NCBI GenBank assembly: GCA_041580775.1
Contig: JBFGDF010000001.1
Span: 22,219 to 86,218, forward strand
Source of the DNA: Gemmatimonadales bacterium
GTDB lineage: Bacteria; Gemmatimonadota; Gemmatimonadetes; Gemmatimonadales; GWC2-71-9
Length of the DNA: 64,000 nt
Reading direction: 5' to 3'
Shown: positions 17,875-55,744 of the stretch, piece after piece
How positions within the stretch are numbered: position 1 is the first letter of the stretch
How the letters are laid out: the number at the start of each line of letters is the position of its first letter
The notes under the pieces: model-generated
The model's input: only the letters and a program-made list of their open reading frames with translations
Told to the model about the DNA's origin: nothing
The model's database searches: none
Translations under genes and position numbers: made by a program

Positions 17875-17876
17875 AA

Positions 17877-17908
17877 GGTTGGGCGGTTGGGCGGTTGGGC
17901 GGTTGGGC
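17877..17908. repeat. Four perfect tandem copies of GGTTGGGC (G-arm)
   Basis: Read directly from the sequence. Fits the G3-N5-G3-N5-G3-N5-G3 quadruplex pattern and is nearly complementary to the array at 17923-17957. Confidence 0.95.
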
Positions 17909-17922
17909 GGTGCGCTGATTCT

Positions 17923-17957
17923 CCACCCGCCCATCCGCCCATCCGCCCATCCGCCCG
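17923..17957. repeat. CCACCCGC followed by three perfect CCATCCGC copies (C-arm), abutting the stop codon at 17958
   Basis: Read directly from the sequence. The reverse complement GCGGATGG differs from GGTTGGGC-type pairing by one position per unit. Confidence 0.95.
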
Positions 17958-25552: not shown

Positions 25553-25810
25553 GCGAATCCTCGCGGCGGTCCCGCTCCGCCAGCTCGCGACGACGTGCGT
25601 GGCTGCCGGCGAGCGCGGCGGCACGCAGTCCTGCCCATCAGACGCCGCAGGAAGTATGTCGCCGGCCGGGGAGGTTTGGGAGGGGGGAGGGGAATCCGCC
25701 GTCCCCACGCTCCCCTGGTTCCCCTCAGTTCCGTCGCAGACCATCACGTCGTTCCCTTGCCACGACCGCGCCCCGGCGACAGTCTCGTGTATCTCCCACG
25801 GGGGGCTGCC

Positions 25811-26764
25811 ATGGCTGACCTCGCCGTCCGTGCCGACTGCGTCAACCACCCGGACCGTCTTGCGGTGGCAGCCTGCGATCGGTGCAGGAAGCCTGTCTGC
25901 CCAGACTGCCGGGAGGACGGAGTCGCCGTAGACGCCGAGTTCTGCTCCACCGCCTGCCGCAGTGAAGCGGAGGCGAGCACCGTGCAGCGCCTGCTGGCGG
26001 GACTCGATCAGCCGTTCCTCACCGGCTGGGATCTCTGGCGGCGCGCCTTGCCCGCCCTCACACGGTCCCTCCTGCCCGTCGCTGCCTTCATTGTGGGGAT
26101 CCTCCTGCTCGACACCGTGTTCGGCACGCCGACGGAGCCTGTCGGCGAGACCACCGGGACGGTGAGCCTGCCGACCACCATCGCGTCCCTCACCGGGTTT
26201 GTCTTCGGTCTCGCCGTGGTCGCCACGGTCCTCTCGAAAGAACACACCGGGGTGATCCGCGGAAACGTCTACACGTGGGTCCTCCGGCGCATCGCCTCGT
26301 GGGTCTTATCGTGGCTTCTGGTGCTGATGGCGGTCTTCCTCGGGACGATCGCGCTCATCGTCCCCGGGATCATCGCGGGGCTGCGGCTCTTCTGGGCGGA
26401 CGAGTTCGCCCTCGCGCATCGCTGTGATCCCGTCACGTCGCTCAAGGAGAGTTGGGCGCTGACCAGGGATCAGGCAACCGCCGTGTTCTCGTTTCAACTG
26501 CTCGCGGGTGTCGCCGCTTGGGGCACCATCCTCGCCGGCGTGGCGCTCGCGACCGCCCTCCAGTGGCTCTTCTTGCAGTTGGGCGACGTGGGCGTCGCGC
26601 TCAGCCTGTTGGCCCTCCTCCTCCTGGCCTTCCTGGGATACGGCCTCATCCACGCCCCTGAAGTGGCCAAGTTCTACGGGATGCGGGCCGCGATGCTCGC
26701 CGGGGTGGAACCCGGCGCCCCGATCCGGCTCGGGCTCGCGGGGCGCCGCCCGATGGGGAGTTGA
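25811..26764 (+). CDS. Membrane protein with N-terminal B-box-type zinc finger
   Basis: CVNHPDRLAVAACDRCRKPVCPDC, followed by about six hydrophobic segments. Start is ATG 25811. The 5' part of the 697-aa ORF-track entry is antisense of the PP2C gene. Confidence 0.65.
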   Translation: MADLAVRADCVNHPDRLAVAACDRCRKPVCPDCREDGVAVDAEFCSTACRSEAEASTVQRLLAGLDQPFLTGWDLWRRALPALTRSLLPVAAFIVGILLLDTVFGTPTEPVGETTGTVSLPTTIASLTGFVFGLAVVATVLSKEHTGVIRGNVYTWVLRRIASWVLSWLLVLMAVFLGTIALIVPGIIAGLRLFWADEFALAHRCDPVTSLKESWALTRDQATAVFSFQLLAGVAAWGTILAGVALATALQWLFLQLGDVGVALSLLALLLLAFLGYGLIHAPEVAKFYGMRAAMLAGVEPGAPIRLGLAGRRPMGS

Positions 26765-37246: not shown

Positions 37247-38656
37247 TCAGTCAGTCGACGGCGCTCCGAATCTGCGGTAGGGATGTTGCCGCAGATGAAC
37301 GCAAATCTCGCGGACCGTCCCGTCCGGATTCAGGACCCTGAACCCATGCGGTGGCAACTCCTCCAGGCGTGCCCGGCCCGCATGCTGAATCCACTTCGCC
37401 TGGTAGGATTCCACCATGCTGTCGCCCCACGTTTGGTTCAACCTGAAGTCCACCGGCCTCCCGCCGCCCTCGAGGTACTCGTGCAGCGTGTTGGCCTGGG
37501 CCTCCGTCAGCGGCTCGGTGCGCAGGCCACTCGGGGGATTGGCGGGGAGCGGGCTTGCCGAGGCCGCACCGGGCGGGCGGGGGCCCGGACCGATACCGGG
37601 CAACGTCGCTCCGCTGCGCGCTGTCGGGAGCATCCGGACGGTTACGGGTCGCTCGCCACTACCCACGATTCGCCTCACGTGATCAGCCAACGTGCGTGCA
37701 CGCACGCGTAAGGCCGCCAGCAAGGCCCGCACGTGAGCGAGTACCCGGCCATACGCGGCGCCAATCGTGGTGACGCTACGGCCCGCGGCACGCGCCGCGG
37801 CGCTGGCACCGGGCCTCCCGGCCGCGCGAGCCGCGCGACCGACGCCCCGCTGGAGGAGTTCCTGGATGATCAGGAGTAGAATCTCCTCGATCAGCTGGTC
37901 GCGGGACACATACGTCCAATGATCGCGCACGGCCTCCGTGAAGTCCGCACGGAAGTCGGGGTCGCGCTCGAGTTCGAGGTACTCAGGAGTCGCAGGCACG
38001 GCCGACCGCCACCGACCGGTACCACGCTGGGTGATGTAGCCGGCGGCCCGCGCCTGGTCGAATTGCTCGATGAACTCCCGGTCCCTGCCGGAGATTGGGT
38101 CTGGTGCGTCGCCACCGAACACCCCTCGCGCGCCCGGTGCCGTTTCGAGTCGCGGGAAATCGTCGGGGTTGTAACGCTGGGCCAGAAACATGAGGGTGGC
38201 GTGGAGTCGCCCCAAGGCGCGGGCGGCCCTTCGCAGTTCCATGGACAGGCGGTGCCGCTCCATCCCGTCGGCTGTGAAGTGGCCGGCCCGATCCTGTGGA
38301 TAGCGCGGATGGGCCTCGCCCCACATGCTCCTCGCACCCAGCGGCGGACCGACTCGGCCCCCAGGCTGCGGACGGAACATCAGAAACGGCGGTGGGCCAA
38401 GGGGCGGCAGGTCTCGATCCGACCCCGCGTCGACATCGGGAGCCGAGCCGTAGATGACCTCGGTGTTCGGGATCGCGACGACGCCCTCGGGCTGAAGATA
38501 GTCTCCTTGGACCCACCCCCCGGCCCGGAGCTTCCTCCACCCCCCTTGGGACTCGGCGACTTCGACTCGCACCCCCCGATCGAGGTTGCGCAGCCACCTG
38601 AATTGCCGGCCGGGTCCGGAGCGGACGGAGACGGCACGCTTGACGATGTAGGCCAT
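37247..38656 (-). CDS. Protein with N-terminal bacterial SH3 domain and an unrecognised ~400-aa remainder
   Basis: Start is ATG 38656 (MAYIVKRAVSVRSGPGRQFRWLRNLDRGVRVEVAESQGGWRKL, an SH3b-like pattern). GGGGAGG lies 7 nt upstream. No signal peptide. Confidence 0.65.
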   Translation of the reverse strand: MAYIVKRAVSVRSGPGRQFRWLRNLDRGVRVEVAESQGGWRKLRAGGWVQGDYLQPEGVVAIPNTEVIYGSAPDVDAGSDRDLPPLGPPPFLMFRPQPGGRVGPPLGARSMWGEAHPRYPQDRAGHFTADGMERHRLSMELRRAARALGRLHATLMFLAQRYNPDDFPRLETAPGARGVFGGDAPDPISGRDREFIEQFDQARAAGYITQRGTGRWRSAVPATPEYLELERDPDFRADFTEAVRDHWTYVSRDQLIEEILLLIIQELLQRGVGRAARAAGRPGASAAARAAGRSVTTIGAAYGRVLAHVRALLAALRVRARTLADHVRRIVGSGERPVTVRMLPTARSGATLPGIGPGPRPPGAASASPLPANPPSGLRTEPLTEAQANTLHEYLEGGGRPVDFRLNQTWGDSMVESYQAKWIQHAGRARLEELPPHGFRVLNPDGTVREICVHLRQHPYRRFGAPSTD

Positions 38657-38999
38657 GGTTGGGCCTCCCCGTGGACCCCGGCAGAGAGCCGTAGGCTTCC
38701 TAGGGCCCTGGAGTACGGAGCGGGCATGCGCGAAGATCGCGGAACGGGCGCGTTCGGCGCGCCGCCGACATTCTCGGTGGTGGTGCCGAGAGCCGAATGC
38801 GGTCTCGCTGGCAGGCCAGGTCGCGAAACAACGGCGGATGGGCGTGCCTCGGCGAGACAGCCGGCAGCTCTCAAGGCGACAGGCGAACATGGCCCCAGCG
38901 GGTGGCGCCCGCAAGCCCAAGAGCGCAGGGGGGCGAACCGGTGCCTCTGCGGCCCTCGGGGGTTGGCCAATGCCATCGCGATGTACTACATCAGACCAT

Positions 39000-39194
39000 A
39001 TGTCCGAGGACGGGCCCGTCCGGCTGTGCCCCTACGTGGTGGGCTACGAAACGGAGCCCGCGGGGAGCGACGTGGCCGACCCGCGGATCCGCTGCGGGCA
39101 GCCGGCAACCGTCCGACTCGACGACGGCGCGTGGCTGTGCGCGGCGCACGCCCGTTTGGTGCGGGCCGAGCGGGACGGACCGAGCGGTAGCTGA
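39000..39194 (+). CDS. Small Cys/His-containing protein (64 aa), hypothetical
   Basis: MSEDGPVRLCPYVV...RIRCGQP...WLCAAHARLV. About 90% GC3 from ATG 39000, whereas the codons upstream in the same frame are AT-ending. No Shine-Dalgarno. Confidence 0.45.
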   Translation: MSEDGPVRLCPYVVGYETEPAGSDVADPRIRCGQPATVRLDDGAWLCAAHARLVRAERDGPSGS

Positions 39195-39281
39195 GGGGCG
39201 CGCGGAGCCGCCGCGGCCACCGATCGATCGATCCGTCGACCCCCTCTTGCCGTCACTCGGCGCGGCCACGACGTTCCGGGC

Positions 39282-39449
39282 ATGGAATTCCTCACCTTTC
39301 TTCTGATTCTCTGGGCCGGCTGGCTCGTGTGGCGGCGGCCTGAGCGCGAGCGGCTCGCGTTCGGCCTGCTCGTGGCAAGCAGCCTGCTGATGGCGCTGCT
39401 GTTCCTGATCGGCACCCACACGTCGTTCGTGCCGGGCGTGAACCTGTGA
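39282..39449 (+). CDS. Unlisted small two-TM membrane protein (55 aa)
   Basis: MEFLTFLLILWAGWLVWRRPERERLAFGLLVASSLLMALLFLIGTHTSFVPGVNL. About 89% GC3. Its stop overlaps the GTG of the next gene (GTGA at 39446-39449). Confidence 0.6.
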   Translation: MEFLTFLLILWAGWLVWRRPERERLAFGLLVASSLLMALLFLIGTHTSFVPGVNL

Positions 39450-40921
39450 CGGCTCTGGCGCCGGACCGGTTGCGCACCGTCCTCGCGTGGGTCGTGATCG
39501 CGCTGATCGCGATCCCGGTGGGTGGGGCGGTGGTGCTGTGGGTCGCGCACGGCGACACCCCCTGCATCCTCTGCTGGTCGCAGCGGACCTCGATGATCCT
39601 GATCGCGCTGGTCGGGCTCTTCGTGCTGCGCTACGGCCCGCGTCCCCGCTATCTCGGCACGGCCGTCCTGCTCGGGACCTGGGGCGTGTTCATGGCCTTG
39701 CGGCACTCAGCCCTCCACCTGGCGCGCGACGTCGGCCAGGGCTTCGCGGCCCCCATCTTCGGTGTCCACACCTATGTGTGGTCGTGGTTCATCCACTGGA
39801 TCGTCCTCGCCGTGATCGGCGTGCTGATGCTGCTCATGCGGGGAGGATTCGGGGAGTGGGGAACGAGGGACACCGGTCGCACGGGCCGGTTCGCATTTGC
39901 GCTGTTCGTGATCGTGGTCGGCGCGAACGCGCTCCAGGCGATCGTCACGACGGGACCACCTCCCTTCATCGGCCAGGCCGATCCAGTCCGGTTCACGCTC
40001 AATCCCCGCCACTGGGTGTGGATGATGGAGGAATTGGAGGGCCGCGTCTCGCTGCGCGGATCGTGGACCATCCCGCGGCCGGACCCCGAGGCCGCCGACC
40101 CCGATCCCACGCACGGGCCACTGGCGGCGCTGCCAGCGCTCCCCGTGCTGGGCTGGGAGCGGATCGGCCCGCCGCTGCACGGGCGGCTCACCGACCTGGC
40201 CCGCGACTCGGCATCGGGCCGGTTTCTCGCCGTCACGGATCGCTACGGCACGTACGTGCTGGACAGCACCTTGTCGCGGGTCGAGCACCGCGTCGTCCTC
40301 GACCCCGGATACAGCATCGATCTGTCACCGCTCGCCGGGGCCGCCTTCCTGACCGGCGACACGCTCGCCCTCCTGGCAACCAACAAGAGCTACGTGCTCC
40401 TGCGGCCCGACCCCCAGGCGGATCCCGACCGCGAGTGGCGTCACTTCCTGGAGACGGACGGCGGCATTACCGAGCTGCGTCGCTCCCGGTTTGCGACGGT
40501 GCGCGCCCGCCAGATGTACGTACTGTCCTTGGCGTTCGACCCTGACACGGACGAGCTGATCACGGTGGCGGTGCCGAGCCCTCGGCACCGACGGCTGGTG
40601 GTGTCCCGGGTTGCGCGGGGGGACTTGGTGTTGGCCTCCGAGTTCGAGCCGCGCCTCGGCGCGGGTCTCACTCCGCTCGGTCCGGAGCGGTCGGCGGCGG
40701 AGTACGTGGTGACCGGCGCCGTGGTGGCCGACGGTCTGCTCTACGCGATGAGCGCGGCCTATTCCACGCTGCTGATGATCGATCTTCAGGACAAGGTCAC
40801 GCGCGGTGCGTATACCGTGCCCGGCATTGCGGATCCGGTCGGGCTCGCGGCCCGCGGTGCCCAGCTCCTCGTGGCGCAGGCCGATGGACGGGTCGCGGTG
40901 GTGGAGCGGCCCATGCCGTAG
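39446..40921 (+). CDS. DsbB-family-like membrane domain (single CxxC) fused to a ~300-aa C-terminal, probably periplasmic, domain
   Basis: The TPCILCWSQRTSMILIAL motif matches the DsbB/BdbC PCxLCxxQR signature. Five hydrophobic segments. These are the only two Cys in 491 aa. The C-terminal region has strand-rich repeats. Confidence 0.65.
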   Translation: MTALAPDRLRTVLAWVVIALIAIPVGGAVVLWVAHGDTPCILCWSQRTSMILIALVGLFVLRYGPRPRYLGTAVLLGTWGVFMALRHSALHLARDVGQGFAAPIFGVHTYVWSWFIHWIVLAVIGVLMLLMRGGFGEWGTRDTGRTGRFAFALFVIVVGANALQAIVTTGPPPFIGQADPVRFTLNPRHWVWMMEELEGRVSLRGSWTIPRPDPEAADPDPTHGPLAALPALPVLGWERIGPPLHGRLTDLARDSASGRFLAVTDRYGTYVLDSTLSRVEHRVVLDPGYSIDLSPLAGAAFLTGDTLALLATNKSYVLLRPDPQADPDREWRHFLETDGGITELRRSRFATVRARQMYVLSLAFDPDTDELITVAVPSPRHRRLVVSRVARGDLVLASEFEPRLGAGLTPLGPERSAAEYVVTGAVVADGLLYAMSAAYSTLLMIDLQDKVTRGAYTVPGIADPVGLAARGAQLLVAQADGRVAVVERPMP

Positions 40922-40967
40922 CCGCGCAGCGAGGCCGGGACCTGCGGGGCGCCCCCCCGCGGCGCCG

Positions 40968-43109
40968 CTAGGGCTGCTGCCCCGCCTCGCCCAACTGGCT
41001 CCAGAGATAGGCGTACGTGAGTGCCAGCATCCGGGCCCGCTGCTGGGGAGTCACCCCGGCACCGTGGCCACCCTCCGTGTTCTCGTAGTAGAGCACGTCG
41101 TGTCCCTGCGCCAGCATCCGCGCCGCCATCTTCCGCGCGTGCCCCGGATGCACCCGGTCGTCGCGCGTCGTCGTGGTAAATAGGGGCCGCGGGTAGTCCC
41201 GGTCCGCGCGCACGTTCTGGTACGGCGAGTAGCGAGAGATATAGGCCCACTCCTCCGGGATGTCGGGATTGCCGTACTCCGCCATCCAGCTCGCGCCCGC
41301 CAGCAGCTTGTTGTACCGCCGCATGTCCAGCAGCGGCACGTTCACGACGACCGCGCCGAACAGCTCCGGCCGTTGTGTCATCGCGACACCCGTGAGCAGC
41401 CCGCCGTTGCTCCCGCCCTGAATGCCCAGGTACGCCGGCTGCGTGATTCCTCGAGCCACCAGGTCTTCCGCCACGGCCAGGAAATCGTCGTACGCCCGCT
41501 GCCGGTGCTCCTTGAGTGCCGCCCGATGCCATGCCGGGCCGAACTCGCCCCCGCCCCGGATGTTCGCCACGGCGTACACCCCACCCTGCTCGAGCCACGC
41601 CTTGCCCACGACGGAGCTGTAGGACGAGGTACGACTGATCTCGAACCCGCCGTAACCGTACAGCAGCGTCCGGTTCCGACCGTTGAGTGCGACATCCCGC
41701 CGGCGTACGACCCAGTACGGCACCGCCGTCCCATCTGCCGATTCCGCCTCATACTGCTCGATGATCAGTCGCTCGGCGTCGAACTGGGCCGGCAGGCGGC
41801 GCACCTCGTCCACGCGCCCGTCGTCACGATGGACGTACAGGGTCGTGGGCTGCACGAAACTCGAGTAGGTGAAGAAGAACCGATTGGAACGCAGATCGAC
41901 GTCCACCGTATTCACCGACCCGAAGTCCGGCGCCTGCACCCGCTCGCCGACCCAGCGGGTCCCGTCGAACCGGTATTTCCAGAGCTGGCCCCGTACGTTG
42001 TCGAGCACGCTGACCAGCAGGTAGTCCCGCGTGGGGCTGGCGCCTTGCACCGTGGAGCGCGGACCTGGCTCCACGACCACGCGGAAGTCGCGGCTCCCCC
42101 CCAGGAAGGCCTCGAGGTTCATGGCAATCACAGAGCCGGTGGCGTACGTGCGCCCACCCACGGTCCAGGGGTCGCGGACGTACACGGTCAACTGGTCGCC
42201 CACGAAGCCCGGGTCGGCGTCCAGCGGGATGTCGAGCCGCACGAGCGAGTCGCCGCGCAGCAAGTGCAGCGTGCCCTCAAAGAAGCTCGGCCGATGATAG
42301 AGCACCGGCTGCGTGCCCCACGCGGCTTCGAAGGACGCTGCGAAGACGGCCACGTCCGTCGGCTTCCCCTCGAACAGCGTCACCGCTGAGTCGAGCGGCG
42401 TGCCGCGGCGCCACAGCTTGGCGGTCCGGGCGTAGCCGGAGGCCGTGAGCGATCCGGTGCCCCAGTTGGTCGCGACCAGGAGCGTGCTGTCGTCCACCCA
42501 GCCCATCGAGCTCTTGGCTTCCGGGAGGAAGAACCCGTCCTGCACGAAACGGGCGTTCGGAAGGTCGAACTCCCGCCGCTCCACCGCATCCGATCCCCCG
42601 CGCGAGAGACTCGCGACACAGTGGCGGTACGCCGGCGCCAGACACGTCATGCCGCGGTACGCCCACGGGACCCCCTCCCGCTCGGCCAGGGCGTCGATGT
42701 CCAGCACGGTCTCCCACGCGGGCGTGCCCGACAGGTAGGACGCGAGCGTCGCGCGGCGGTAGATGCCGCGCGCGTGCGCCTCGTCGGTCCAGAAGTTGTA
42801 AACCGTCTCGCCCCGCGTGTTCGGATATGGGATGCGGTCCTCCGTGGTGAGGATCCGGAGGATGTCCTGCTCAAGGGTCGCAAACCCGGAATACGCCTGC
42901 AACTCGGCCACCGACTTCGCGTTCTGTTCCTCCACCCAGGCCAGCGCGCGCGCGCCTTCCACCTCCTCGAGCCAGAGGAACGGATCGTCCTGGACCGTCG
43001 CAGCCCCTGCGGGCGCTTGGGCCGCAAGACCGGGCACCGTCAGCAGGGCCAGGGCCACGAGCGACAGGTACGACGTGGGCAGGATACGGGGGCGATGGGT
43101 GTGGATCAT
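40968..43109 (-). CDS. Prolyl oligopeptidase (peptidase S9A), secreted
   Basis: N-terminal propeller, then the catalytic part with GGSNGGLL, RDDRVHP and EGGHGAG. Signal peptide from ATG 43109. GAGGAAGGA RBS. Confidence 0.85.
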   Translation of the reverse strand: MIHTHRPRILPTSYLSLVALALLTVPGLAAQAPAGAATVQDDPFLWLEEVEGARALAWVEEQNAKSVAELQAYSGFATLEQDILRILTTEDRIPYPNTRGETVYNFWTDEAHARGIYRRATLASYLSGTPAWETVLDIDALAEREGVPWAYRGMTCLAPAYRHCVASLSRGGSDAVERREFDLPNARFVQDGFFLPEAKSSMGWVDDSTLLVATNWGTGSLTASGYARTAKLWRRGTPLDSAVTLFEGKPTDVAVFAASFEAAWGTQPVLYHRPSFFEGTLHLLRGDSLVRLDIPLDADPGFVGDQLTVYVRDPWTVGGRTYATGSVIAMNLEAFLGGSRDFRVVVEPGPRSTVQGASPTRDYLLVSVLDNVRGQLWKYRFDGTRWVGERVQAPDFGSVNTVDVDLRSNRFFFTYSSFVQPTTLYVHRDDGRVDEVRRLPAQFDAERLIIEQYEAESADGTAVPYWVVRRRDVALNGRNRTLLYGYGGFEISRTSSYSSVVGKAWLEQGGVYAVANIRGGGEFGPAWHRAALKEHRQRAYDDFLAVAEDLVARGITQPAYLGIQGGSNGGLLTGVAMTQRPELFGAVVVNVPLLDMRRYNKLLAGASWMAEYGNPDIPEEWAYISRYSPYQNVRADRDYPRPLFTTTTRDDRVHPGHARKMAARMLAQGHDVLYYENTEGGHGAGVTPQQRARMLALTYAYLWSQLGEAGQQP

Positions 43110-43247: not shown

Positions 43248-46200
43248 TCAAGACAACTCCGCCAGCGCCTCTCGTACGCGACGCACCCACACGCACGCCG
43301 GTTCGGCGTGCTGGAAGACCTCCATGGCTTGCCGCAGCAGGCGCACGGCGTCCTCGCGCTTCCCCGTACGGCTGTAGACGAGCGCAAGCTCATACAGCCC
43401 GCGCGGGTGGTAGGGGCGTCGCCGCAGATACTCCGTGAGGCGCCGCTGTGCGTCGCCGTATTGCCCCAGCGCGCGCTCACAGCGCGCGAGATCGATGTCG
43501 GTGGCGGTGAGGGTCGGATTCAGCGCACGGGCCTGCTCGTAGTGCGAGACGGCGCGTTCGCAGCTGCCGCGGAGTTCCCACACCAGGCCCTGGGCTCGCT
43601 CCCGGTCCCCCCGGAGCACGCCGAGCCCGAAACGGGCGATGAGCGTATCCAGCTGCGGGAGCGCCGCTTCGAGACTGTCCGCGTGCTCCAACTCCTCGGC
43701 TATGCCGAGGCGACCGATCGCCAGAAGCGCGTCGAGGGCGCCACTGACTTGCCGCCCCAGGGCCGCCAGGGAATCGCGTGCCACCTCCACGCGCCCGGCG
43801 CGGACGTATTGGGCGAGCCCTTCCAGCTTGAGCTGCAGCAGCGCGAGCGGCACCGTGGCGTAGGCCCCTTCCGCCCAGCCACGCTCCATGTAGCGGACCG
43901 CCAGCGACACCTCACCCCGTCGGTCGTGGAACCCTCGGAGCGCGTCGAACACCCTGGTGCGCTCGCTCGGCGTCTCGGCGACGGCGAGCGCATCATCGAA
44001 CCGCGCGCGGGCGTCGTCGAACCGCCCGATGTCAGTCAGGACCCAGGCCGCACCGAGGATCGGATCGACGTCTTCTGCATCGAGGAGCGACGCCCGCTCG
44101 TACTGCTCCAGTGCCCGCGCATGGTCGCCGATCCGGGCATAGAGCTGGCCGAGGTCGGTGAACGCACGCGCGTCCTCCGGAAACCGATCGGCATACCGGC
44201 GGAAGTAGCCGAGGGTGCGCTCGTCGTCGCCCCGCTGCATGGCGAGGGACCCGAGAGTCCGTAGCAGCTCGTGGCGCGTGGTGTCGAGCGCATACATGCG
44301 TTCGACTTCGGCGCCGGCGCTGTCGAACTGCCCGGCTGCCGCCCACAGTTGCGCCAACATGGAGCGCGCCTGGAGGTCAAAGGGATAGAGCTCCGTGTGC
44401 ATCCGAGCGACCGCGAGCGCCCGCTGTGGATCTTGCTGCGCGATCCGGTAGTGGTATGTCCGGATGATGAGCTGGTAGATCTCCGGCAGCTTGTACGCCA
44501 GGCGGCGCGCGCGCTCGAGCGCCGCCGGCGCAACGTCCGCCTGATTCGAGAGGATGCGCGCCTGCCACAGCGCAACGTAGGCGAGCGCGAAGAGTGAGTC
44601 CTCGGCAACGGCCGCCGCGAACGGGACTGCCGCTGCCGCAGTCTCCAGACGCAACAGCCGCACCGCCCCGTCCACATAGTGGCGATACGCGGGCAGGGAG
44701 GCAGTCAGCGTCTCCGCAACCGGGAGGTCACGGCTGCCCTCGATCTGGGCCTCTGGTACTTCGAGGTCCGCCTTGAGCGCCATCGTGATCTGATCCACGA
44801 GAGCGAAGACGTCGGAGCCCGCAAAGCGCCGCTTCGCCACCACCTGACCGCTGCGCGTCTCGTAGAGCTGCGTCGACACCGTGAGCTCGCGGCCAGCCCG
44901 ATCGACCGTGCCAGCAAGCAGCCACCCCAGGTGCGCATCCTGGGCGATCTGCCGCTTGAGCGCGAGCGGGACGTTCCGCCCGTCCGGGAACCCCTCGCGT
45001 TGGAGCCATTCCCTAAAGGACAGGGGATCCTGCACATAGAAGAACAAGTCCTGCAGGAGGTCATGCTGAACCGCCCAGGGGATCCCATACTGCAGCCACG
45101 TGAGCGCCGTATCCGCAGTGGGGTTGTCGAAGAAGAACACCGCGAGGTTCTTGCGGTAGCCTTCCTTCGGCACCTGACGCGTGATGAGGTTCCCCTCCTC
45201 GTCCCGAAGTGTCACGGCGGTCGTGGCGGCGCCGAGGTCCTTCCCGCCGAACACGAGAAACAGCACCGCGATCGCGATCAGCGCGTTGGCCGGAATGCCG
45301 ACCTTCTCGATCACCGACCAGCCGTCGGCGCGGCGACGGGACGCGAGGAGCGTCACCGTGGGCAGGAACAGGAGCAACGTGAGCCCCACGAGACCTGTGA
45401 GATGCGGCGACAAGGGAAGGCGCGTGACCCACCACTTGAGGACGGCCAGTGCAAGCACACCAAGGAGCGCGTACGCCGCAACCACGCGCACGGCGCGCCG
45501 GCTCAGGACCTCGCTCCACCACGCGCCGGATCCGACGGTTCGCTGGGGGCCACTCACGGCGGCGGCATCGAGCGCCTGGGCAAACGCCGACGCGGTCGCG
45601 TACCGGTCGCCCGGCACCTTGGCCAGCAGCCGCTCTACGACCGTCGCTAGGGGGCGCGGCACGTCCGCACCGGTCGTCGCGAGCGGCGGCGCGCGATCCA
45701 CCACCTGCCGAGCCAGCGTGCGCTGAGGGGTATCGCCGCCAAACGGCGGGCTGCCGGCGAGCATCTCATACACCACACACCCCAATGCGTACAGATCGCT
45801 CCGGCCGTCGACATCGGACTGGCCGCTGGCCTGCTCGGGACTCATGTAGGCGGGCGTGCCGACGGCGAGACCCACGGCGGTGAACGGCTGGCCGGCCGAC
45901 GCGGCCTGCGTCGCACGAGCGATGCCGAAGTCGGCCACGAGGGCCGTGCCACCAGCGAGCAGGATGTTCTCGGGCTTGATATCGCGATGCACAACGTCGC
46001 GCGCGTGGGCAAACTCCAGCGCCGTGGCGACCTGCCGCGCGATGCGCACGGCATCGGCGACGGGAATCCGCGCGTCCCGGTCCAACCGGGCGCGGAGGCT
46101 CTCGCCCTCCACGTACGGCATCACGTAGTACAGCAGGCCATCGGCTTCGCCAGAGTCATACAGCGCGACGATGTGCGGATGCTGCAGGTTGGCCGTGAGT

Positions 46201-46394
46201 CGGATCTCGCGCAGGAACCGGTCCGCCCCAAGCGCCTGGCCCAACTCGGGTTTGAGGACCTTGATCGCGACCTGGCGATCGTGTTTCAGGTCCTGTGCGA
46301 GGTAGACCGTGGCCATGCCGCCGCGGCCCAACTCGCGCCCGATCGCGTAGCGGTCAGCCAACGCCTCGGCGAGGCGATTCACCAGCGTCTCCAT
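43248..46394 (-). CDS. Hanks-type Ser/Thr protein kinase with TM segments and a long C-terminal TPR region
   Basis: GRGGMATVYLAQD, VAIKVL, HRDIKPEN, DFGIA and SPEQ. Hydrophobic segments lie around residues 300-390. The C-terminal half is TPR-like. Confidence 0.85.
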   Translation of the reverse strand: METLVNRLAEALADRYAIGRELGRGGMATVYLAQDLKHDRQVAIKVLKPELGQALGADRFLREIRLTANLQHPHIVALYDSGEADGLLYYVMPYVEGESLRARLDRDARIPVADAVRIARQVATALEFAHARDVVHRDIKPENILLAGGTALVADFGIARATQAASAGQPFTAVGLAVGTPAYMSPEQASGQSDVDGRSDLYALGCVVYEMLAGSPPFGGDTPQRTLARQVVDRAPPLATTGADVPRPLATVVERLLAKVPGDRYATASAFAQALDAAAVSGPQRTVGSGAWWSEVLSRRAVRVVAAYALLGVLALAVLKWWVTRLPLSPHLTGLVGLTLLLFLPTVTLLASRRRADGWSVIEKVGIPANALIAIAVLFLVFGGKDLGAATTAVTLRDEEGNLITRQVPKEGYRKNLAVFFFDNPTADTALTWLQYGIPWAVQHDLLQDLFFYVQDPLSFREWLQREGFPDGRNVPLALKRQIAQDAHLGWLLAGTVDRAGRELTVSTQLYETRSGQVVAKRRFAGSDVFALVDQITMALKADLEVPEAQIEGSRDLPVAETLTASLPAYRHYVDGAVRLLRLETAAAAVPFAAAVAEDSLFALAYVALWQARILSNQADVAPAALERARRLAYKLPEIYQLIIRTYHYRIAQQDPQRALAVARMHTELYPFDLQARSMLAQLWAAAGQFDSAGAEVERMYALDTTRHELLRTLGSLAMQRGDDERTLGYFRRYADRFPEDARAFTDLGQLYARIGDHARALEQYERASLLDAEDVDPILGAAWVLTDIGRFDDARARFDDALAVAETPSERTRVFDALRGFHDRRGEVSLAVRYMERGWAEGAYATVPLALLQLKLEGLAQYVRAGRVEVARDSLAALGRQVSGALDALLAIGRLGIAEELEHADSLEAALPQLDTLIARFGLGVLRGDRERAQGLVWELRGSCERAVSHYEQARALNPTLTATDIDLARCERALGQYGDAQRRLTEYLRRRPYHPRGLYELALVYSRTGKREDAVRLLRQAMEVFQHAEPACVWVRRVREALAELS

Positions 46395-46917
46395 GCTCCC
46401 TCACCCGCGCTGATCCCATTTGTACCATAGGACGCCGGGCGCATCGCGGCTAGTTCCGTGGCGGAATGGTGACGGGGACGGACAAGCATGCCGGTGGGGC
46501 GCTGGGGCGCTAGGTGGACGAGACCCCTCACCGACGGGCGTCGAGCGGCTCCAGCGCACGGGTCGGCGCGGCGTGAGCCATACTCGGCTTTGGCAGCGCC
46601 GCGTGGCACTAGCAACCCTCGCCAAGGCTTCCGCTTCGCTCATTGCCCCACCGACCGCGCCGGAGGGCGGCCCAGGCCGCGTCCTGCGGTACCCATCCCC
46701 CCCCGCGGCAGTCGTGGAGTGGTTCACGCACGTTACCCTTGCACATCGCTGCGAACCGTGCGGTGACCCCCCTCCCCCGACCTGGACACCACGCGAGTCC
46801 CCCCCGATACTTCCATCTCAGCAGTGACCGTCTAATCCCGACAACTTGCTTCGTGTTTGTCGCCCCGCGGTGGCGTAACACCGCCCACATGCTCCTCATG
46901 CTCCTTCCGGAGTGACC

Positions 46918-49014
46918 ATGACCCTGCCTCGTCGTAACGGCCCGCGCACCGAAGAGTGGCAGCACAAACTTTTCATCGCCGTCTCCGGCCTGCTGTTGTT
47001 CGAGACGCTCACGGGCCTCTCCATCTTCCTGCTCCCGTTCTCCGTGTCCAACCAGGTCATGGTGCTGCTGCACACCGCCGTGGGCATCGTGTTCCTGGGC
47101 CCGTTCGCCTGGTATCAGCTGCGCCATTGGCTGCTCTACCGCCCGCTCCGCATGTCGCACGTGAAGCTCACGGGTTACTTCGCCATGGTCGCGACGATCG
47201 TCGCCATCGTGTCCGGCGTGGTACTCACCGTGCAGGCGCTCTGGGCGACGCGGATCAGCTACGCCTGGGACCTGGTCCACATCGTGGCGACGTTCGCCCT
47301 GATCGCGTCGGTGGTGCCCCATGTGGTGGTGCTGATCGTCCGGGCGACCCGCGCGACAGATGCGGCGAACGGCGAGCCCGTCCTTGCGGCCGCCCGGCGC
47401 GGGGGCGTGGGGTCGCTCGTAGTCATGGCCGCGCTGTTCGTCGCGGTGGCGCTGGTGGCGTACTGGTACGAGCCGCCACGGCTGCAGAACGCGCTGCCGG
47501 ACGACTACAGCTACCTCTACGGCGCGGACCGGCCGTTCGCCCCGAGTCTGGCGCGCACGAACACCGGCACCGCGTTCGATGCGCGCTCGATGAGCGGCTC
47601 GGAATCATGCGGCACCTCGCGCTGCCACGAACAGATCTACGACGAGTGGCAGGTGAGCGCGCACCGCTACTCGGCCATGGACGCGGCGTTCCAGTCGGTG
47701 CAGGAGGTGATGGCCAAACAGAACGGCGCCGAGTCCACCAGGTACTGTGGCGGCTGCCACGACCCCATCTCACTGTTCTCCGGCACGAAGAACGTCTTCA
47801 CGGAAGACCTCACGAACCTGGTGGGCTACCAGGAAGGGGTGTCCTGCATCGTCTGTCACGCCATCGAGGAAACCGACGTCAAGGGGAATGCCAACTACGT
47901 CATCCGGCAGCCTGAACGCTACATGTTCGAGCTGGATGAGGGCTCCACGGCGCGGTTTTTCCGGGACTTCCTGCTTCGGGCCTACCCGCGGCATCACGTC
48001 AAGTCGCTGCAGCACAAGCTGTTCAAGAGCGCCGAGTTCTGCGCCGCATGCCACAAGCAGTTCATCGACGAGGAGATCAATCAGGTGGGCTGGGTGCAGC
48101 TCCAGAACCAGTACGACAACTGGCGCAAGAGCCGCTGGAACGAGCCGGGCGATCCCACCAAGACGATCGAGTGCCGCGAGTGCCACATGCCCCTGGATGA
48201 CTCGCACGACCCGGGCAGCGGCGACGACCTGGACTACAACCGCCGGCCGCGCGACGGCAAACACCGCAGCCATCGGTTCCTTGCGGCGAACCAGTTCATG
48301 CCGCTCGCGCTCAAGCTCGAGGGTGCCGAAGAGCACGCCAGGCTGACGGAGCAGTGGCTTCGAGGAGAGATCGAGATCCCCGAGATCGCTGACAAGTGGC
48401 GTACCGGCCCCGCCGTGCCCGTGGAGCTGGTGGTCCCGGACACCGTGTATCCGGGCCAGGACGTGAAGATCCAGGCCGTCGTGACCAACAACAAGGTCGG
48501 CCACGACTTCCCCACCGGCCCGCTCGATATCATCCAGGCCTGGGTGGAGATCGAGGTACAGGACCAAGCCGGCAACCTGGTGTACGCCTCGGGCCGCACG
48601 GACCGGAGGCACTTCATCGAGCCTGGCTCGTTCATCTTCAAGGCGGAGCCGGTGGATCAGGCCGGCAATCTGATCGACCGACACAACCTCTGGGAGATGG
48701 TCGGCGTGCGCTACCGCCGCTCCATGTTCCCCGGCGCCTCCGATCGGGCGGAGTTCGGCTTCTCGTGTCCGGCCACCTCGCTCCTGGGGCAGAGCGCGGG
48801 CGGCGAGCGCGCGCCACTCGATACCACCGTCGCGTTCCGCGTGCCCCGTGGCCAGAGTGCCACGCTCCACGTGTCGGCCAAACTGAAGTACCGCAAGGTG
48901 GACCAGTTCCTCCTGAACTTCCTGTTCGGCGAGGAATCCGGCCTGACCTCGCCGGTGACCGTGATGTCGGAGGACCAGAAGACGATCGTGGTGCGGCCGC
49001 GCCGCGCGTCCTAG
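46918..49014 (+). CDS. Membrane-anchored multiheme c-type cytochrome (five-TM His-containing N-domain plus 4 CxxCH and 1 CxxxxCH)
   Basis: Heme motifs CGTSRCH, CGGCH, CIVCH, CAACH and CRECH. N-terminal TM helices carry His residues (LLHTAVG, LVHIVATF, VPHVV). GGAG lies 5 nt upstream of ATG 46918. Confidence 0.8.
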   Translation: MTLPRRNGPRTEEWQHKLFIAVSGLLLFETLTGLSIFLLPFSVSNQVMVLLHTAVGIVFLGPFAWYQLRHWLLYRPLRMSHVKLTGYFAMVATIVAIVSGVVLTVQALWATRISYAWDLVHIVATFALIASVVPHVVVLIVRATRATDAANGEPVLAAARRGGVGSLVVMAALFVAVALVAYWYEPPRLQNALPDDYSYLYGADRPFAPSLARTNTGTAFDARSMSGSESCGTSRCHEQIYDEWQVSAHRYSAMDAAFQSVQEVMAKQNGAESTRYCGGCHDPISLFSGTKNVFTEDLTNLVGYQEGVSCIVCHAIEETDVKGNANYVIRQPERYMFELDEGSTARFFRDFLLRAYPRHHVKSLQHKLFKSAEFCAACHKQFIDEEINQVGWVQLQNQYDNWRKSRWNEPGDPTKTIECRECHMPLDDSHDPGSGDDLDYNRRPRDGKHRSHRFLAANQFMPLALKLEGAEEHARLTEQWLRGEIEIPEIADKWRTGPAVPVELVVPDTVYPGQDVKIQAVVTNNKVGHDFPTGPLDIIQAWVEIEVQDQAGNLVYASGRTDRRHFIEPGSFIFKAEPVDQAGNLIDRHNLWEMVGVRYRRSMFPGASDRAEFGFSCPATSLLGQSAGGERAPLDTTVAFRVPRGQSATLHVSAKLKYRKVDQFLLNFLFGEESGLTSPVTVMSEDQKTIVVRPRRAS

Positions 49015-49015
49015 C

Positions 49016-50824
49016 GTGGCCGGCCTCCCCCGGCGCCGTCGCCTGCTCTTCCGGACCGCGGGCTTCGGCGCGCTGTTCGTGGTCGCTGCCGGTGTGGCCG
49101 TGTGGCTCGCCACGCGGCCCAAACCCACCTACCGGCCGGGCGAAGCGGTTCAGGGGCTGACGGCCGACCTCGCCCGCGACCTCCCGCCGGACTACCCGCG
49201 CGTCACGTTCAGCGACGTCACGGCGCAGGCGGGCATCACGTTCCGGCACTTCACCGGCCACCGCTCGTCGCAGCTCCCGGAAGACATGGGCTCCGGCGCC
49301 GCCTGGGGCGATTACGACGGCGACGGCTGGTTGGACCTGTACGTGGTGAACGCGGTGGGCCCGCTCACGGCCGCGACGCCGGACGAGGTGGCGCGGTCGC
49401 CGGCCCACGCGGCGCTGTACCGCAACCTGGGCGACGGCACGTTCCGCGACGTGAGCGCCGAGGCCGGCGTCCAGTTCCGCGGCTGGGGCATGGGTGCCAC
49501 CTGGGCCGACGTCGACAACGACGGCCGGCTCGACCTGTTCGTCACGGCCTACGGCGATAACGTGCTGTACCGTAACAACGGGGACGGCACGTTTACCGAC
49601 CGCACCCGGGCGGCAGGCCTCGGCGGCCGGCCCGGGTTCTGGGCGGGCGCCGCCTGGGGCGACTATGACCGGGACGGCTTCCTGGACCTCTACGTCACGG
49701 GCTACGTGCAGTACCGCCAGCTCGCCGACCAGGGAGCCACGCGGCAGTACGACGTCGAGCAGCCCGCCGGCATCAACCCGTCGTCGTTCGAGCCGGAGTC
49801 CAATCTCCTGTTCCGCAACCAGGGGAACGGCACGTTCACCGAGGTGGCCGTCCGCGCGGGGGTCGCGAACCCCACCGGACGGAGCCTCGGCGCCGTGTGG
49901 GCGGACTTCGACGACGACGGCTGGCCCGATCTCTACGTCGCCAACGACGTGTCCGACAATGTGATGTTCCGCAACCTGGGCGACGGGACCTTCGCGGACG
50001 TGAGCCACGCCGCACGCGTCGCCGACTACCGGGGCGCCATGGGCCTCGCCGTGGGCGACTGGGACGGGGATCAGGATCTGGATCTCTTCGTCACGCACTG
50101 GATCGCCCAGGAGAACGCGTTGTACAGCAACCTCCGCGCGGAGCTCGAGGCCCGCGGCGCGTACTTGCGTCAGCCGATCCAGTTCACCGACGAGGCCGAC
50201 CGCTACGGGCTGGGACAGATCGCGCTCGATTTCGTGGGCTGGGGCACGTCGTTTGTCGACTACGACAACGACGGCCGGCCGGACCTGTTCGTCGTGAACG
50301 GCAGCACCCTGGAAGAGAAACGGGATCGGCGACTCCTCGTTCCGATGCGCAGCCTGCTGTTCTGGAATCGCGGCGCGGGGGACGGGTTCTACGACGTGTC
50401 GCCCGTGAGTGGAGCGTACTTCAAGGAAACGCACGTCGGCCGCGGGGCGGCCTTCGGGGACTACGACAACGACGGCGACGTGGACGTTTTCATCGTGAAC
50501 AACGGCGGGCCGGGCCTCCTGCTCAGGAACGACGGCGGCAACCGCCAGCGCTGGCTCGGGGTCGCGCTCGAGGGCACGAAGAGCAACCGGTTTGGCGTGG
50601 GCGCGCGGGTGCGGCTCGTAGCGGGCGGCACCGTACAGGTCCGCGAGGTCGGCGCACAGACGTCCTACTTGTCGCAAAACAGCCTGATCGAACATTTCGG
50701 ACTTGGCGCTGCCAACGGCGTGGATACGCTGGAGATCCGCTGGCCCAGCGGCACTCGGCAGATTGTGTCGGCGCCCGCGCCAAGTCGGGTGCTGCACGTC
50801 GTGGAGCAGGCGGCCCGGCGATGA
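49016..50824 (+). CDS. CRTAC1-family protein (FG-GAP/VCBS repeats plus C-terminal ASPIC/UnbV domain)
   Basis: Repeated GDYDGDGWLDLYV / DVDNDGRLDLFV / GDYDRDGFLDLYV units. C-terminal NRFGVGARVRL...QTSYLSQNSLIEHFGLG...IRWPSG. Confidence 0.8.
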   Translation: MAGLPRRRRLLFRTAGFGALFVVAAGVAVWLATRPKPTYRPGEAVQGLTADLARDLPPDYPRVTFSDVTAQAGITFRHFTGHRSSQLPEDMGSGAAWGDYDGDGWLDLYVVNAVGPLTAATPDEVARSPAHAALYRNLGDGTFRDVSAEAGVQFRGWGMGATWADVDNDGRLDLFVTAYGDNVLYRNNGDGTFTDRTRAAGLGGRPGFWAGAAWGDYDRDGFLDLYVTGYVQYRQLADQGATRQYDVEQPAGINPSSFEPESNLLFRNQGNGTFTEVAVRAGVANPTGRSLGAVWADFDDDGWPDLYVANDVSDNVMFRNLGDGTFADVSHAARVADYRGAMGLAVGDWDGDQDLDLFVTHWIAQENALYSNLRAELEARGAYLRQPIQFTDEADRYGLGQIALDFVGWGTSFVDYDNDGRPDLFVVNGSTLEEKRDRRLLVPMRSLLFWNRGAGDGFYDVSPVSGAYFKETHVGRGAAFGDYDNDGDVDVFIVNNGGPGLLLRNDGGNRQRWLGVALEGTKSNRFGVGARVRLVAGGTVQVREVGAQTSYLSQNSLIEHFGLGAANGVDTLEIRWPSGTRQIVSAPAPSRVLHVVEQAARR

Positions 50825-53098: not shown

Positions 53099-55582
53099 TC
53101 AGGGCGCCGCCAAACGGTCGAGCAGAAACCGGACGGCCAGGTCCGTCACGTTCCACAGCTGAATGTCGGAACTCGTCCCGTAGCGCACGGGGCGCAGCGT
53201 GTCGCCTTCGATCCGGTAGCTCCACAGCTCGTTGTGCTTGAGGCCCGAGGCCTCGACGGCCGCGCGCGCGCCATCGAGGGAGCGGCGCAAGCCGTTCACG
53301 TACGCGCGCATCGCGTCACCGTCAGACCGCAGTCTGCCGAACGCGTCGTACGCGGCGTGGATCTGTCTGGCGAGCCCCAGGAACAGCAGGTTCACTTCGC
53401 GACCCCAGACTACGCGCGGCGAGTGGTACAGATCGTCCCGGAAGGCCTGCTGGACCTCGGGGCTCGCATAGACGTCGTTGGCGACCAGGGGCCCCAGGCC
53501 GTCCACGAAGAGGCCCACCGGATAGGGTCGGGCCACCACGTCGAGCAGCGACCCAACGGCACCCGGAGTGGCGGCGCCGCGCAGGATCTGCTCCGTGTAG
53601 TCCCCCAGGAACAGGTCCGTCGCGGGGTCGGTGTTGGCGACCGCGATCGGCCGGCCCACGCTGTCGAGCGCCACCGCAAGGAAGCGCAGGGCCCGCGCAG
53701 CACTGGGGTGATGCAGGTACTGCCGCCAGTAGGATCGTTCCGGCTCGCTCATCGCCTCAAGCGCTGCGGTCACCTGCGCGCGGATCTCGTCCGGCGTGCG
53801 CTCGACCTCGAAGTGCCGCCGCGCCGCGTGCCACGTGGCAAGCGTCGACTGCCACCGGGCGGCGTCGTGCAGCAGCGCCGTGAGCGCCACCGCATCGCCG
53901 GGCACGCGGGACACGGCGGCTTCCGCGGAGAACCCGAGGGCGTCTATCGCCCAGAGAATGGTCTCCGCCGCCTCCAGCGCCTTGGGCACCCACACGACGT
54001 TCACATCCATCGCGAACCTGCCGCCGCCGTACCCCACGCGGCTGTCCCGCCAGCTGCCCGGCAGCCAGCCGCGGTCATCCCGGTACTGAAAGCCCACCAG
54101 ATTCGTGGCCACCGGCTCCTGGGCATACGGCCATGCGAGCCGCGCCACGAACGCGAGGTTCCGGACCAGCGCGTCCAGCCGCGTGACGCCGCTCCCGGCG
54201 GCGGCGGTCAGGAAGCGTCGCTTTCGCTCGGCCGGCACGTCGGTCCGCGCCAGATAGCGGCCGGCGAGCACCGGCAGCTGGAAGTCGTCGTCGATCATGC
54301 GGTAGTTCTCGCGCACCCGCGACAGCGTCCCGAGCAGCGCACGGGCGTCAGCCAGGTGCTGGGCGGCAGCCGCCGGGTCCGTCCGGGTCGCGTCCGCCCA
54401 CTCCCGGATCAGGGCGCTGTATTCCGCGGCGTTCTCGCGGATCGCCTGCCCGCCGAGTGCTTCCTCGTGACTCGCTTCGCCGGCCGGTGAGAGCTTGCGC
54501 AGCACGCTCGCGATCACGTGCTCCTGGAGCTCCACCGACGAGATGGGCTCCAGCATGAGCGCCGTCATCATCATGTCGCGACCGAAGTACGTCGCGTAGT
54601 TGGGCAGGGCGGCCATGAGCTTCTCTTGGTAGCTCAACAGCTCGAGCCCACGGATCTCCCGCTCGAACCGGCGGAAGGACAGGACACGCGCGTCCCGTGC
54701 CAGCCCCTCGGGCGTCAGCGCCCGCCGCAAGCTGTCGGCCAGGCGGCGCTGGCGCTGGTAGAACGCCTCGAATGCGTCGTTGAAGATCTGGCTCCGTTCG
54801 AGCGGCGTGAGCGCCGGGGCGTCGGTGGTGCCAGTCACCTCGAACCGGGTGCCGCCGGCGCCGCGCGCCCGAATCCGGATCACGTCGCCCGCCACATCGG
54901 CCATGCTGGTCCTGGCGTCGCCGGACAGCACGAAGGTCATGCGGTTCCGGCCGTCCAGGCTGATGTGCTCCACGACGACGGTCCACAGCGTGTCGCCCTG
55001 TGTGAGGGTGAGCCGCGGGTAGAGCCGTCCCCGCAGATCGGTCACGCTGCGGGCACCGAGCAGTGACAGATGGCGCCGCCGCTCCGCGGTGGGCAGCCGC
55101 TCCACACTGGCGATCAAGTCCGTCAGCTCCTCCAGCGCAAAGCGGCCGTCGCCATAGGGTTTCCGGTGCCAGCCCCAGTGCTGGACATCACGCTCCTGCC
55201 GCATCGTGCCGAGCACGAACCAGCCGATCTCGAGAGCCCCCGCCGCCGACGCGAGCCGATGCCGCACCGCCCGGCGTGGTCCGTCGTCAAACACCTCGAC
55301 ACCCGACCCACCCCACGTGAGCGGCGCCGGCCGGCCCAGCGTATCGCGCACCGTGAAGGCCGCGCTGACATTGGACGCGTCGGCCCACACGTGGACCACC
55401 CGTCCGCTCCGGGTATCGAGGTAGATCTGGAAGGCGTTGCGCCGCGAGTCACGGAAGAAGCGGGTCGCATAGCCTTCGTAGGCCACCGAATCGTCCAGAC
55501 CCGCTTCCGGGAATTCGAGCACCGGCGCTTGCACCCCCTGCGCGAGCGCCTGGACCACGAAGAGCGATGCGAGCACGTGCAT
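53099..55582 (-). CDS. Secreted (alpha/alpha)6-barrel glycoside-hydrolase-like protein (GDE_C / amylo-alpha-1,6-glucosidase-like), function uncertain
   Basis: 827 aa from ATG 55582 with signal peptide MHVLASLFVVQALAQG. NYATYFGRDMMMTALML and GYGGGRFAMDVNVVWVP blocks are reminiscent of the GDE_C family. Confidence 0.5.
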   Translation of the reverse strand: MHVLASLFVVQALAQGVQAPVLEFPEAGLDDSVAYEGYATRFFRDSRRNAFQIYLDTRSGRVVHVWADASNVSAAFTVRDTLGRPAPLTWGGSGVEVFDDGPRRAVRHRLASAAGALEIGWFVLGTMRQERDVQHWGWHRKPYGDGRFALEELTDLIASVERLPTAERRRHLSLLGARSVTDLRGRLYPRLTLTQGDTLWTVVVEHISLDGRNRMTFVLSGDARTSMADVAGDVIRIRARGAGGTRFEVTGTTDAPALTPLERSQIFNDAFEAFYQRQRRLADSLRRALTPEGLARDARVLSFRRFEREIRGLELLSYQEKLMAALPNYATYFGRDMMMTALMLEPISSVELQEHVIASVLRKLSPAGEASHEEALGGQAIRENAAEYSALIREWADATRTDPAAAAQHLADARALLGTLSRVRENYRMIDDDFQLPVLAGRYLARTDVPAERKRRFLTAAAGSGVTRLDALVRNLAFVARLAWPYAQEPVATNLVGFQYRDDRGWLPGSWRDSRVGYGGGRFAMDVNVVWVPKALEAAETILWAIDALGFSAEAAVSRVPGDAVALTALLHDAARWQSTLATWHAARRHFEVERTPDEIRAQVTAALEAMSEPERSYWRQYLHHPSAARALRFLAVALDSVGRPIAVANTDPATDLFLGDYTEQILRGAATPGAVGSLLDVVARPYPVGLFVDGLGPLVANDVYASPEVQQAFRDDLYHSPRVVWGREVNLLFLGLARQIHAAYDAFGRLRSDGDAMRAYVNGLRRSLDGARAAVEASGLKHNELWSYRIEGDTLRPVRYGTSSDIQLWNVTDLAVRFLLDRLAAP

Positions 55583-55744
55583 GGGAAGAACCGCCGTGAT
55601 GCTGGTGAGGGTCGACCGGTCGAGATCCCAAATGTATCCGGCATGAGCCGTGCCCGCGACACACTCGGCCGTGTCACCGCGTGTTGTCCGCGGGCGGCCA
55701 CGCGGGTACGTTTTCCGCGTATCCCGCTTCGAGGTCATGGCCGC

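Follow-up and report, generated by a model that had tools for sequence, protein, structure and literature searches.

Positions 39000–40921 of a 64,000-nucleotide stretch of DNA from a Gemmatimonadales bacterium (positions 22,219 to 86,218 of contig JBFGDF010000001.1, GenBank assembly GCA_041580775.1; the whole stretch is hereafter the window) very probably contain a dba-dsbI operon of a Gemmatimonadota bacterium, whose products would act by the DsbI/Dba mechanism that we propose below. The operon comprises dsbI (39446..40921, + strand, GTG start), which by its open reading frame (ORF) and the NCBIfam model NF050065 encodes a 491-amino-acid (aa) inner-membrane protein of the DsbI family, and dba (39282..39449, + strand), recognized by the NCBIfam model NF050061 as coding for the 55-aa accessory membrane protein of DsbI with two transmembrane (TM) segments. 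The DsbI-Dba pair has been known since 2005, the DsbI family of Campylobacter and Helicobacter reportedly going back to work by Raczko in that year, and the copy in the window is a phylogenetically distant member of it. The module is not an epsilonproteobacterial peculiarity, being conserved in Gemmatimonadota and Acidobacteriota.

The original prediction, made from the letters of the DNA, had recognized a DsbB-like protein fused to a large extra domain and preceded by two mini-ORFs, and had taken the Dsb architecture to be an undescribed one. The latter claim has to be given up, since the literature describes exactly these features as the DsbI family (defined in a 2015 review, PMC4460558), the NCBIfam models for both DsbI and Dba are matched, and the window protein is directly homologous to those of Helicobacter and of the Campylobacter type over its full length. 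What can be said for novelty is that Pfam recovers no more than the first half of the DsbB domain and leaves the C-terminal domain unmatched, that no relative has a solved structure, and that most database entries of relatives are named merely 'DsbB' or 'hypothetical'; an undescribed architecture is nevertheless extremely improbable.

The dsbI gene product

The match to NF050065 covers aa 11–470 of the window protein (E=5.4e-77) with 259.3 bits, which is below the equivalog cutoff of the model (800 bits). Among the family representatives a Campylobacter-type DsbI (P0151, 832 bits) is alone in exceeding this value; since even Helicobacter pylori DsbI scores only 436.6 bits, the cutoff is one tuned to Campylobacter that fails to delimit the family. 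BLASTP aligns the window protein to P0151 with 30% identity over aa 12–488 (E=2e-72) and to H. pylori DsbI (P0150, from a cluster labeled as proteins of Helicobacter pylori) with 31% identity (E=1.9e-60), and the homology therefore extends over both domains. The close homologs come from metagenome-assembled genomes (MAGs) of Gemmatimonadota and the more distant ones (45–53% identity) from Acidobacteriota; the named divergent representatives belong to Helicobacter, Malaciobacter, Ferrimonas, and Sutterella, DsbI-type proteins being found also in some Gamma- and Betaproteobacteria (Ferrimonas, Sutterella). In all, the full-length protein of the window type is present in hundreds of independent assemblies.

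The G+C content of the window is ~70% throughout, and dsbI shows G+C by codon position of 0.71/0.51/0.89, which is the pattern of the neighboring genes, with the third-position value (GC3) uniform at 0.89 across the ORF. Its only cysteines are C40 and C43, within the signature PCILCWSQR (nucleotides [nt] 39560–39586) singled out by the original prediction; the CXXC redox motif C40-I-L-C43 together with R47 (39563..39586, + strand) provides the equivalents of C41, C44, and R48 of Escherichia coli DsbB. The in-frame extension upstream of dsbI ends at a stop (ending at 39343) and contributes no cysteine, and with this stretch short and Cys-free an alternative start cannot supply one. Exactly two cysteines are likewise present in 40/40 aligned close relatives, an identical stretch comprising the 64-aa ORF, dba, and dsbI recurs in an independent NCBI assembly (GCA_041633055.1), and the same fusion is found as a collinear full-length DsbI match at 80 related loci that were fetched from different Gemmatimonadota and Acidobacteriota assemblies. 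Given these observations and the uniform GC3, the chance that the fusion or the paucity of cysteines is an artefact of assembly, frameshift, or start-codon choice is practically negligible.

In an alignment of 27 divergent DsbI-family representatives every sequence has C40, 24 retain C43, and at least 90% carry R47; no further Cys column is conserved. The residues invariant in all 27 are P39, C40, G64, D95, G99, H108, W112, G170, P173, K314, T351, D393, and E399. Three divergent full-length members (P0198, P0215, and P0219, the first from a cluster that includes a Sutterella sp. MAG) have PC-x-M-S/G-G in place of the CXXC and keep the first cysteine alone, while still carrying the propeller described below and most other invariant residues; such single-Cys versions sit badly with the role of a simple dithiol/disulfide oxidase.

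The N-terminal DsbB-like membrane domain (aa 1–170; 39446..39955, + strand) matches Pfam PF02600 (DsbB) over aa 13–92 (E=7.4e-10, 39.8 bits vs a cutoff of 22.1), in agreement with the DsbB-type domain first proposed; the match spans profile positions 4–84 of 148, that is, the first half of DsbB only. A profile of the family N-domain aligns in turn to residues 14–94 of E. coli DsbB (E=1e-7), pairing C40, C43, R47, and H87 of DsbI with C41, C44, R48, and H91. The quinone site of E. coli DsbB includes R48 and H91. Because the quinone-side residues of DsbB all have conserved equivalents in DsbI, the sequence comparison makes it likely that quinone coupling is retained. The C104/C130 shuttle pair of E. 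coli DsbB is without a counterpart in this profile alignment, in which residues 95–137 are unmatched, and the second periplasmic loop of DsbI (86–108) is ~20 residues long and devoid of cysteine, so that the second pair is indeed missing, as first noted; DsbI is not expected to serve DsbA. Pfam yields no VKOR family match for the window protein at E<=1.

AlphaFold2 (AF2) predicts five helices in this domain, at 6–35, 41–63, 67–92, 109–130, and 144–169, with a predicted local distance difference test (pLDDT) score mostly of 80–95, as against three segments obtained from a strict hydropathy threshold alone. Arginines cluster in the loops 62–69 and 131–148. These Arg-rich loops and the helix count fit an N-in topology, in which the CXXC loop, the loop 86–108, and the C-terminal domain would all be periplasmic, and the helix count and charge distribution thus agree with the earlier proposal that a fifth TM segment places a Cys-free, strand-rich domain in the periplasm. 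The model used was built on an alignment of the 27 divergent representatives (mean pLDDT 85.4, predicted template modeling score 0.81); a run on close relatives only gave a good C-domain and a poor membrane domain (pLDDT 40–60) and was set aside.

The C-terminal domain (aa ~225–491; 40118..40918, + strand) contains no cysteine and has no Pfam match. From ~225 onward it is modeled as all-beta, with 21 strands forming five blades of four plus a closing strand (pLDDT ~90–97), and a Foldseek search of the PDB returned beta-propellers only; what had been suggested as a possible propeller is thus predicted to be a five-bladed one. The best geometric fits are five-bladed glutaminyl cyclases of plants and bacteria (3nol, 3mbr, and 2iwa; template modeling score per target 0.67–0.74, root-mean-square deviation 4.0–5.0 Å, 10–14% identity), whose propellers are akin in size to that of DsbI. 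Homology to these enzymes was rejected in favor of a fold resemblance on account of the low identity and the lack of a Pfam match, and nothing points to a common catalysis. Searched by profile for a solved relative, the PDB sequences gave marginal matches only (DsbB 6wvf, E=0.6).

Outside the CXXC, strong conservation is seen in the second periplasmic loop, which reads R-H87-x3-H-x3-D95-x-G-Q-G99-F ... H108-T-x2-W112, and in the segment following TM5, the most conserved periplasmic motifs being D95-V-G-Q-G-F and T169-G-P-P-P-F-I-G-Q..D-P-V-R-F. H87, D95, and H108 of loop 2 and K314, T351, R353, D393, and E399 of the propeller are conserved in the family. This bears on whether the protein could be an ordinary DsbB that reoxidizes a DsbA, with the extra domain incidental. 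The Pfam DsbB match and the conserved CXXC, Arg, and His would accommodate such a role; however, the counterparts of C104/C130 are absent, loop 2 is short and Cys-free, K314, T351, D393, and E399 of the propeller are invariant in the 27 representatives and its sequence is conserved in the related loci, and Campylobacter jejuni DsbI (CjDsbI) is reported not to interact with DsbAs, which together render this reading very improbable.

Dba and its probable coupling to dsbI

The product of dba (GC3 0.88; two hydrophobic segments) matches NF050061 over its full length (1–55/55, E=2.2e-13), with 49.9 bits against an equivalog cutoff of 90 in this Campylobacter-tuned model. A Dba match lies directly upstream of dsbI in 75 of the 80 related loci, the remaining five being cut by contig ends, and of the two mini-ORFs sought in relatives this is the one that recurs, the 64-aa ORF being absent in 79/80 (see below). 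In all 74 loci whose match starts at residue 1 the gene has exactly 55 codons; the length of Dba is hence 55 aa in every examined Gemmatimonadota or Acidobacteriota locus. The Campylobacter-type locus has a 55-aa gene that ends 12 nt before dsbI, and that of H. pylori a 54-aa gene ending 8 nt before it. Window Dba is 35% identical to the former product and 41% to the latter; the three-way alignment has a single one-residue gap, in the H. pylori row, and M-E-F-L, P20, E21, E23, A26, L30, and N54 are invariant in it.

Dba has been described as a small inner-membrane accessory protein of the dba-dsbI operon (PMC4460558, PMC3167755). In C. jejuni, abolishing or truncating dba translation leaves no DsbI synthesis, i.e., the genes are translationally coupled, and E. 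coli degrades DsbI when Dba is lacking (PMC3167755). In the window the GTG start of dsbI sits on the TGA stop of dba (CTGTGAC), producing the 4-nt GTGA overlap (39446..39449, + strand) already noticed in the original prediction. The same 4-nt overlap (GTGA or ATGA) occurs at 43 loci, a 1-nt overlap (TGATG) at 15, and a 14-nt overlap at one, and 15 further loci, mostly of Acidobacteriota, have a gap of 2–32 nt. As the stop of dba overlaps the start of dsbI, ribosomes ending dba would most likely re-initiate on dsbI, and both proteins would then be made together. A 96-nt segment around the junction, checked for a stem-loop hiding the dsbI start of the kind proposed for C. jejuni, is less stable than shuffled controls (z=+1.33). 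With the two genes overlapping by 4 nt, termination-reinitiation appears more likely here than the unmasking of a ribosome-binding site proposed for C. jejuni. Scans of 38600–41100 for sigma-70 promoters and intrinsic terminators found nothing, a result that says little for this phylum.

Many 55-aa Dba homologs are labeled 'heme A synthase' by the Joint Genome Institute, and most other sources leave them unnamed; the label looks like a propagated mis-annotation.

The upstream 64-aa ORF and the wider neighborhood

The second mini-ORF (39000..39194, + strand, GC3 0.89) does exist as first described and encodes a 64-aa Cys3His protein (C10, C32, C47, and H50). It shares the orientation of dba, 87 nt upstream of which it lies, is called as a gene by the NCBI annotators, and has no match in Pfam or NCBIfam. 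Only three homologs were found among 5.8 billion protein clusters, all from Gemmatimonadota. The conserved core of the protein reads CPYVVGY..EPAGSDVADPRIRCG.PAT...C..H; a 68%-identical homolog differs from the window gene at 18 codons by synonymous changes only and keeps the part CPYVVGY..EPAGSDVADPRIRCG.PAT, the combination of which suggests, at the level of codons, purifying selection. This homolog (L081:4001-4195) is not near dba-dsbI but sits immediately downstream of a gene for a Ser/Thr kinase with Tricorn/PD40 domains. We consider the ORF to be probably a real gene. Its orientation, its distance from dba, its coding-like GC3, and its retention beside dba-dsbI in the closest relative could speak for a third component of the system, e.g., a cytoplasmic regulator or metal-binding partner. 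Against this, it is missing from the position upstream of dba at the 79 other loci, has only the three homologs, one of them in an unrelated neighborhood, and lacks a signal peptide or TM segment, which would leave it and the redox site on opposite sides of the membrane; a third component is thus improbable, and we regard the product as a lineage-restricted small Cys3His protein that is a mere neighbor outside the dba-dsbI module.

The operon is flanked upstream by a divergent gene of 469 aa coding for an SH3 domain and on the other side by a convergent one for an S9 prolyl oligopeptidase. When the ORFs of the 80 loci and the window were clustered, nothing but dsbI, dba, and the antisense shadow ORFs of dsbI recurred; in the next cluster, single linkage had joined Ser/Thr kinases with S9 peptidases, at variable positions. 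Kinase genes do recur near dba-dsbI in related loci at no fixed position, and three Ser/Thr protein kinase genes are present in the window itself (12429–15059, 16214–17950, and 43248–46394, all − strand), the kinase being joined to PD40 propeller repeats in one of them, standing without another Pfam domain at E<=1e-5 in another, and joined to a large TPR array in the third; a PP2C phosphatase gene is found at 24674–26245 (− strand). Two dsbI copies on different contigs were observed in the MAGs JBFYZE01 (L026, L039) and CAVTZY01 (L071, L073), which fall in Gemmatimonadales and Terriglobia; C. lari is also reported to have two copies (PMC4460558).

Other redox-related genes of the window include one coding for a 700-aa protein with four CxxCH heme-binding motifs and weak Cytochrome_C554 and MtrC-like Pfam matches (46912–49014, + strand), immediately followed by one for an FG-GAP/ASPIC (UnbV) repeat protein (49016–50824, + strand); the two may form an extracytoplasmic multiheme redox pair, ~6 kb downstream of dsbI. 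At 1020–3128 (− strand) a 701-aa ORF that has 15 cysteines (two CxxC motifs among them), scores well as coding, and is without a Pfam match at E<=1e-5 lies directly downstream of a gene for a molybdopterin/[2Fe-2S] oxidoreductase of the xanthine dehydrogenase family (3180–5840). Finally, a 909-aa ORF without a Pfam match (53099–55831, − strand) overlaps the 5' ~760 nt of an alpha-amylase ORF (55070–57388, + strand), and one of the starts, most likely that of the amylase, has probably been set too far upstream.

Proposed mechanism of DsbI-Dba and comparison with known systems

We propose that the CXXC of DsbI would be oxidized by membrane quinone, as in DsbB. Because DsbI has no shuttle pair, the electron donor would have to reach the CXXC directly, and a dedicated periplasmic partner might then dock on the propeller, which would select and position it. 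For H. pylori DsbI, the role of partner would fall not to a monomeric DsbA but to HP0231/DsbK, a dimeric DsbG-like oxidase; in that species, loss of DsbI shifts HP0231 partly to the reduced form (PMC4597128). Dba would stabilize DsbI or aid its assembly in the membrane. CjDsbI has a comparable layout, with five N-terminal TM helices and a conserved CXXC and Arg in the periplasmic loop between the first and second of them (PMC4460558).

Several points weigh against this proposal. With the matches to both NF050065 and NF050061 below the respective cutoffs, orthology of function is not guaranteed. H. pylori without DsbI keeps most of its HP0231 oxidized and its motility is unaffected (PMC4597128), and CjDsbI reportedly cooperates with neither DsbA1 nor DsbA2 (PMC7089426; PMC12428200). 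The dsbI mutant of C. jejuni is the most peroxide-sensitive of the dsb mutants (PMC7089426), and the authors assign DsbI to a pathway of its own, reductive and serving stress defense (PMC7089426; a figure legend of PMC12428200). Even two decades on, the findings on the founding members do not converge on one redox partner or one direction of electron flow. The context offers no name for the partner either: scanned with Pfam, 40 of the 41 GC3-filtered ORFs in the window, together with the 469-aa gene upstream, gave no match to a thioredoxin-fold, DsbA/C/G, or VKOR family (the original prediction had proposed to look for DsbA or VKOR homologs in the genome), and no conserved neighbor supplies one. 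Gemmatimonadetes have been reported to possess separate VKOR homologs elsewhere in their genomes (PMC4555120). Furthermore, the conserved loop 96–107 (39731–39766) and linker 175–207 (39968–40066) have pLDDT <50 in the better AF2 model, of which they are the sole low-confidence parts; their ordering may need Dba, the quinone, or the partner.

The C. jejuni results lead to a different account, in which DsbI serves in reductive or oxidative-stress defense, its CXXC and propeller reducing or repairing oxidized periplasmic targets. Besides the peroxide phenotype and the assignment by the C. jejuni authors, it draws on the three divergent representatives with CxxS or CxxG, a loss that a simple dithiol oxidase could not afford, and on the conserved polar residues of loop 2 (H87, D95, and H108) and of the propeller (K314, T351, R353, D393, and E399). 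Yet the DsbB-type C-x-x-C...R and His signature indicates coupling to quinone, and this coupling is an oxidizing one in DsbB; HP0231 turns reduced upon loss of DsbI in H. pylori, as the loss of an oxidase would have it; and a cytoplasmic electron-input module of the DsbD/CcdA type is neither fused to DsbI nor encoded nearby among the scanned ORFs. We therefore hold this account to be unlikely, if with an appreciable chance of being right.

A further idea, quite unlikely and with a smaller chance, is that DsbI-Dba is a widespread quinone-linked periplasmic enzyme without any relay of the DsbA/DsbB style, which might act on oxidized (e.g., sulfenylated) proteins or a non-protein substrate. Its catalytic surface could be formed by the first Cys of the CXXC with H87, D95, H108, and W112, to which the linker GPPPF..G...P.RF and K314, T351, R353, D393, and E399 of the propeller could be added. 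It fits because both the peroxide sensitivity of the C. jejuni dsbI mutant and the single-Cys (CxxS/CxxG) members would find a place in it; if it is true, DsbI together with a Dba of invariant length in soil Gemmatimonadota and Acidobacteriota would mark an ancient, uncharacterized envelope redox function. Returning to the oxidizing DsbI-Dba system that we favor, the cross-phylum alignment is of modest value for its mechanism in that it isolates a few invariant residues in loop 2, the post-TM5 linker, and the propeller that could guide mutagenesis in Campylobacter and Helicobacter, both of them tractable.

Among known systems, E. coli DsbB is homologous to DsbI from TM1 to TM3. The canonical form is a stand-alone protein of four TM helices and ~170–180 aa, whereas the 491-aa window protein has a short loop 2, adds a fifth TM helix and a ~270-aa propeller, and needs Dba. 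The DsbI of uropathogenic E. coli and Salmonella belongs to a different family, being a conventional four-Cys DsbB paralog without a propeller and with DsbL as partner; the DsbL/DsbI pair of these organisms reportedly goes back to work by Grimshaw in 2008. Although both are DsbB paralogs, the enterobacterial and epsilonproteobacterial DsbI share only the name.

The closest likeness is to the DsbI of C. jejuni (Cj0017c) and H. pylori (HP0595), which, like the window protein, combines a five-TM DsbB-like domain with a CXXC and Arg, a single Cys pair, and a C-terminal periplasmic beta-propeller, and is preceded immediately upstream by a dba of 54 or 55 aa. The window protein differs from these in phylum (Gemmatimonadota vs Campylobacterota) and in the junction with dba, which is a 4-nt overlap as opposed to a gap of 8–12 nt in the epsilonproteobacterial loci; at 491 aa vs 489–510 aa, it is collinear with them at ~30% identity over both domains. 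Similarly, the Dba proteins of NF050061 share with that of the window the length of 55 residues, the N-terminal MEFL, and the motif (R/K)(R/K)PE(R/K)E between the two hydrophobic segments.

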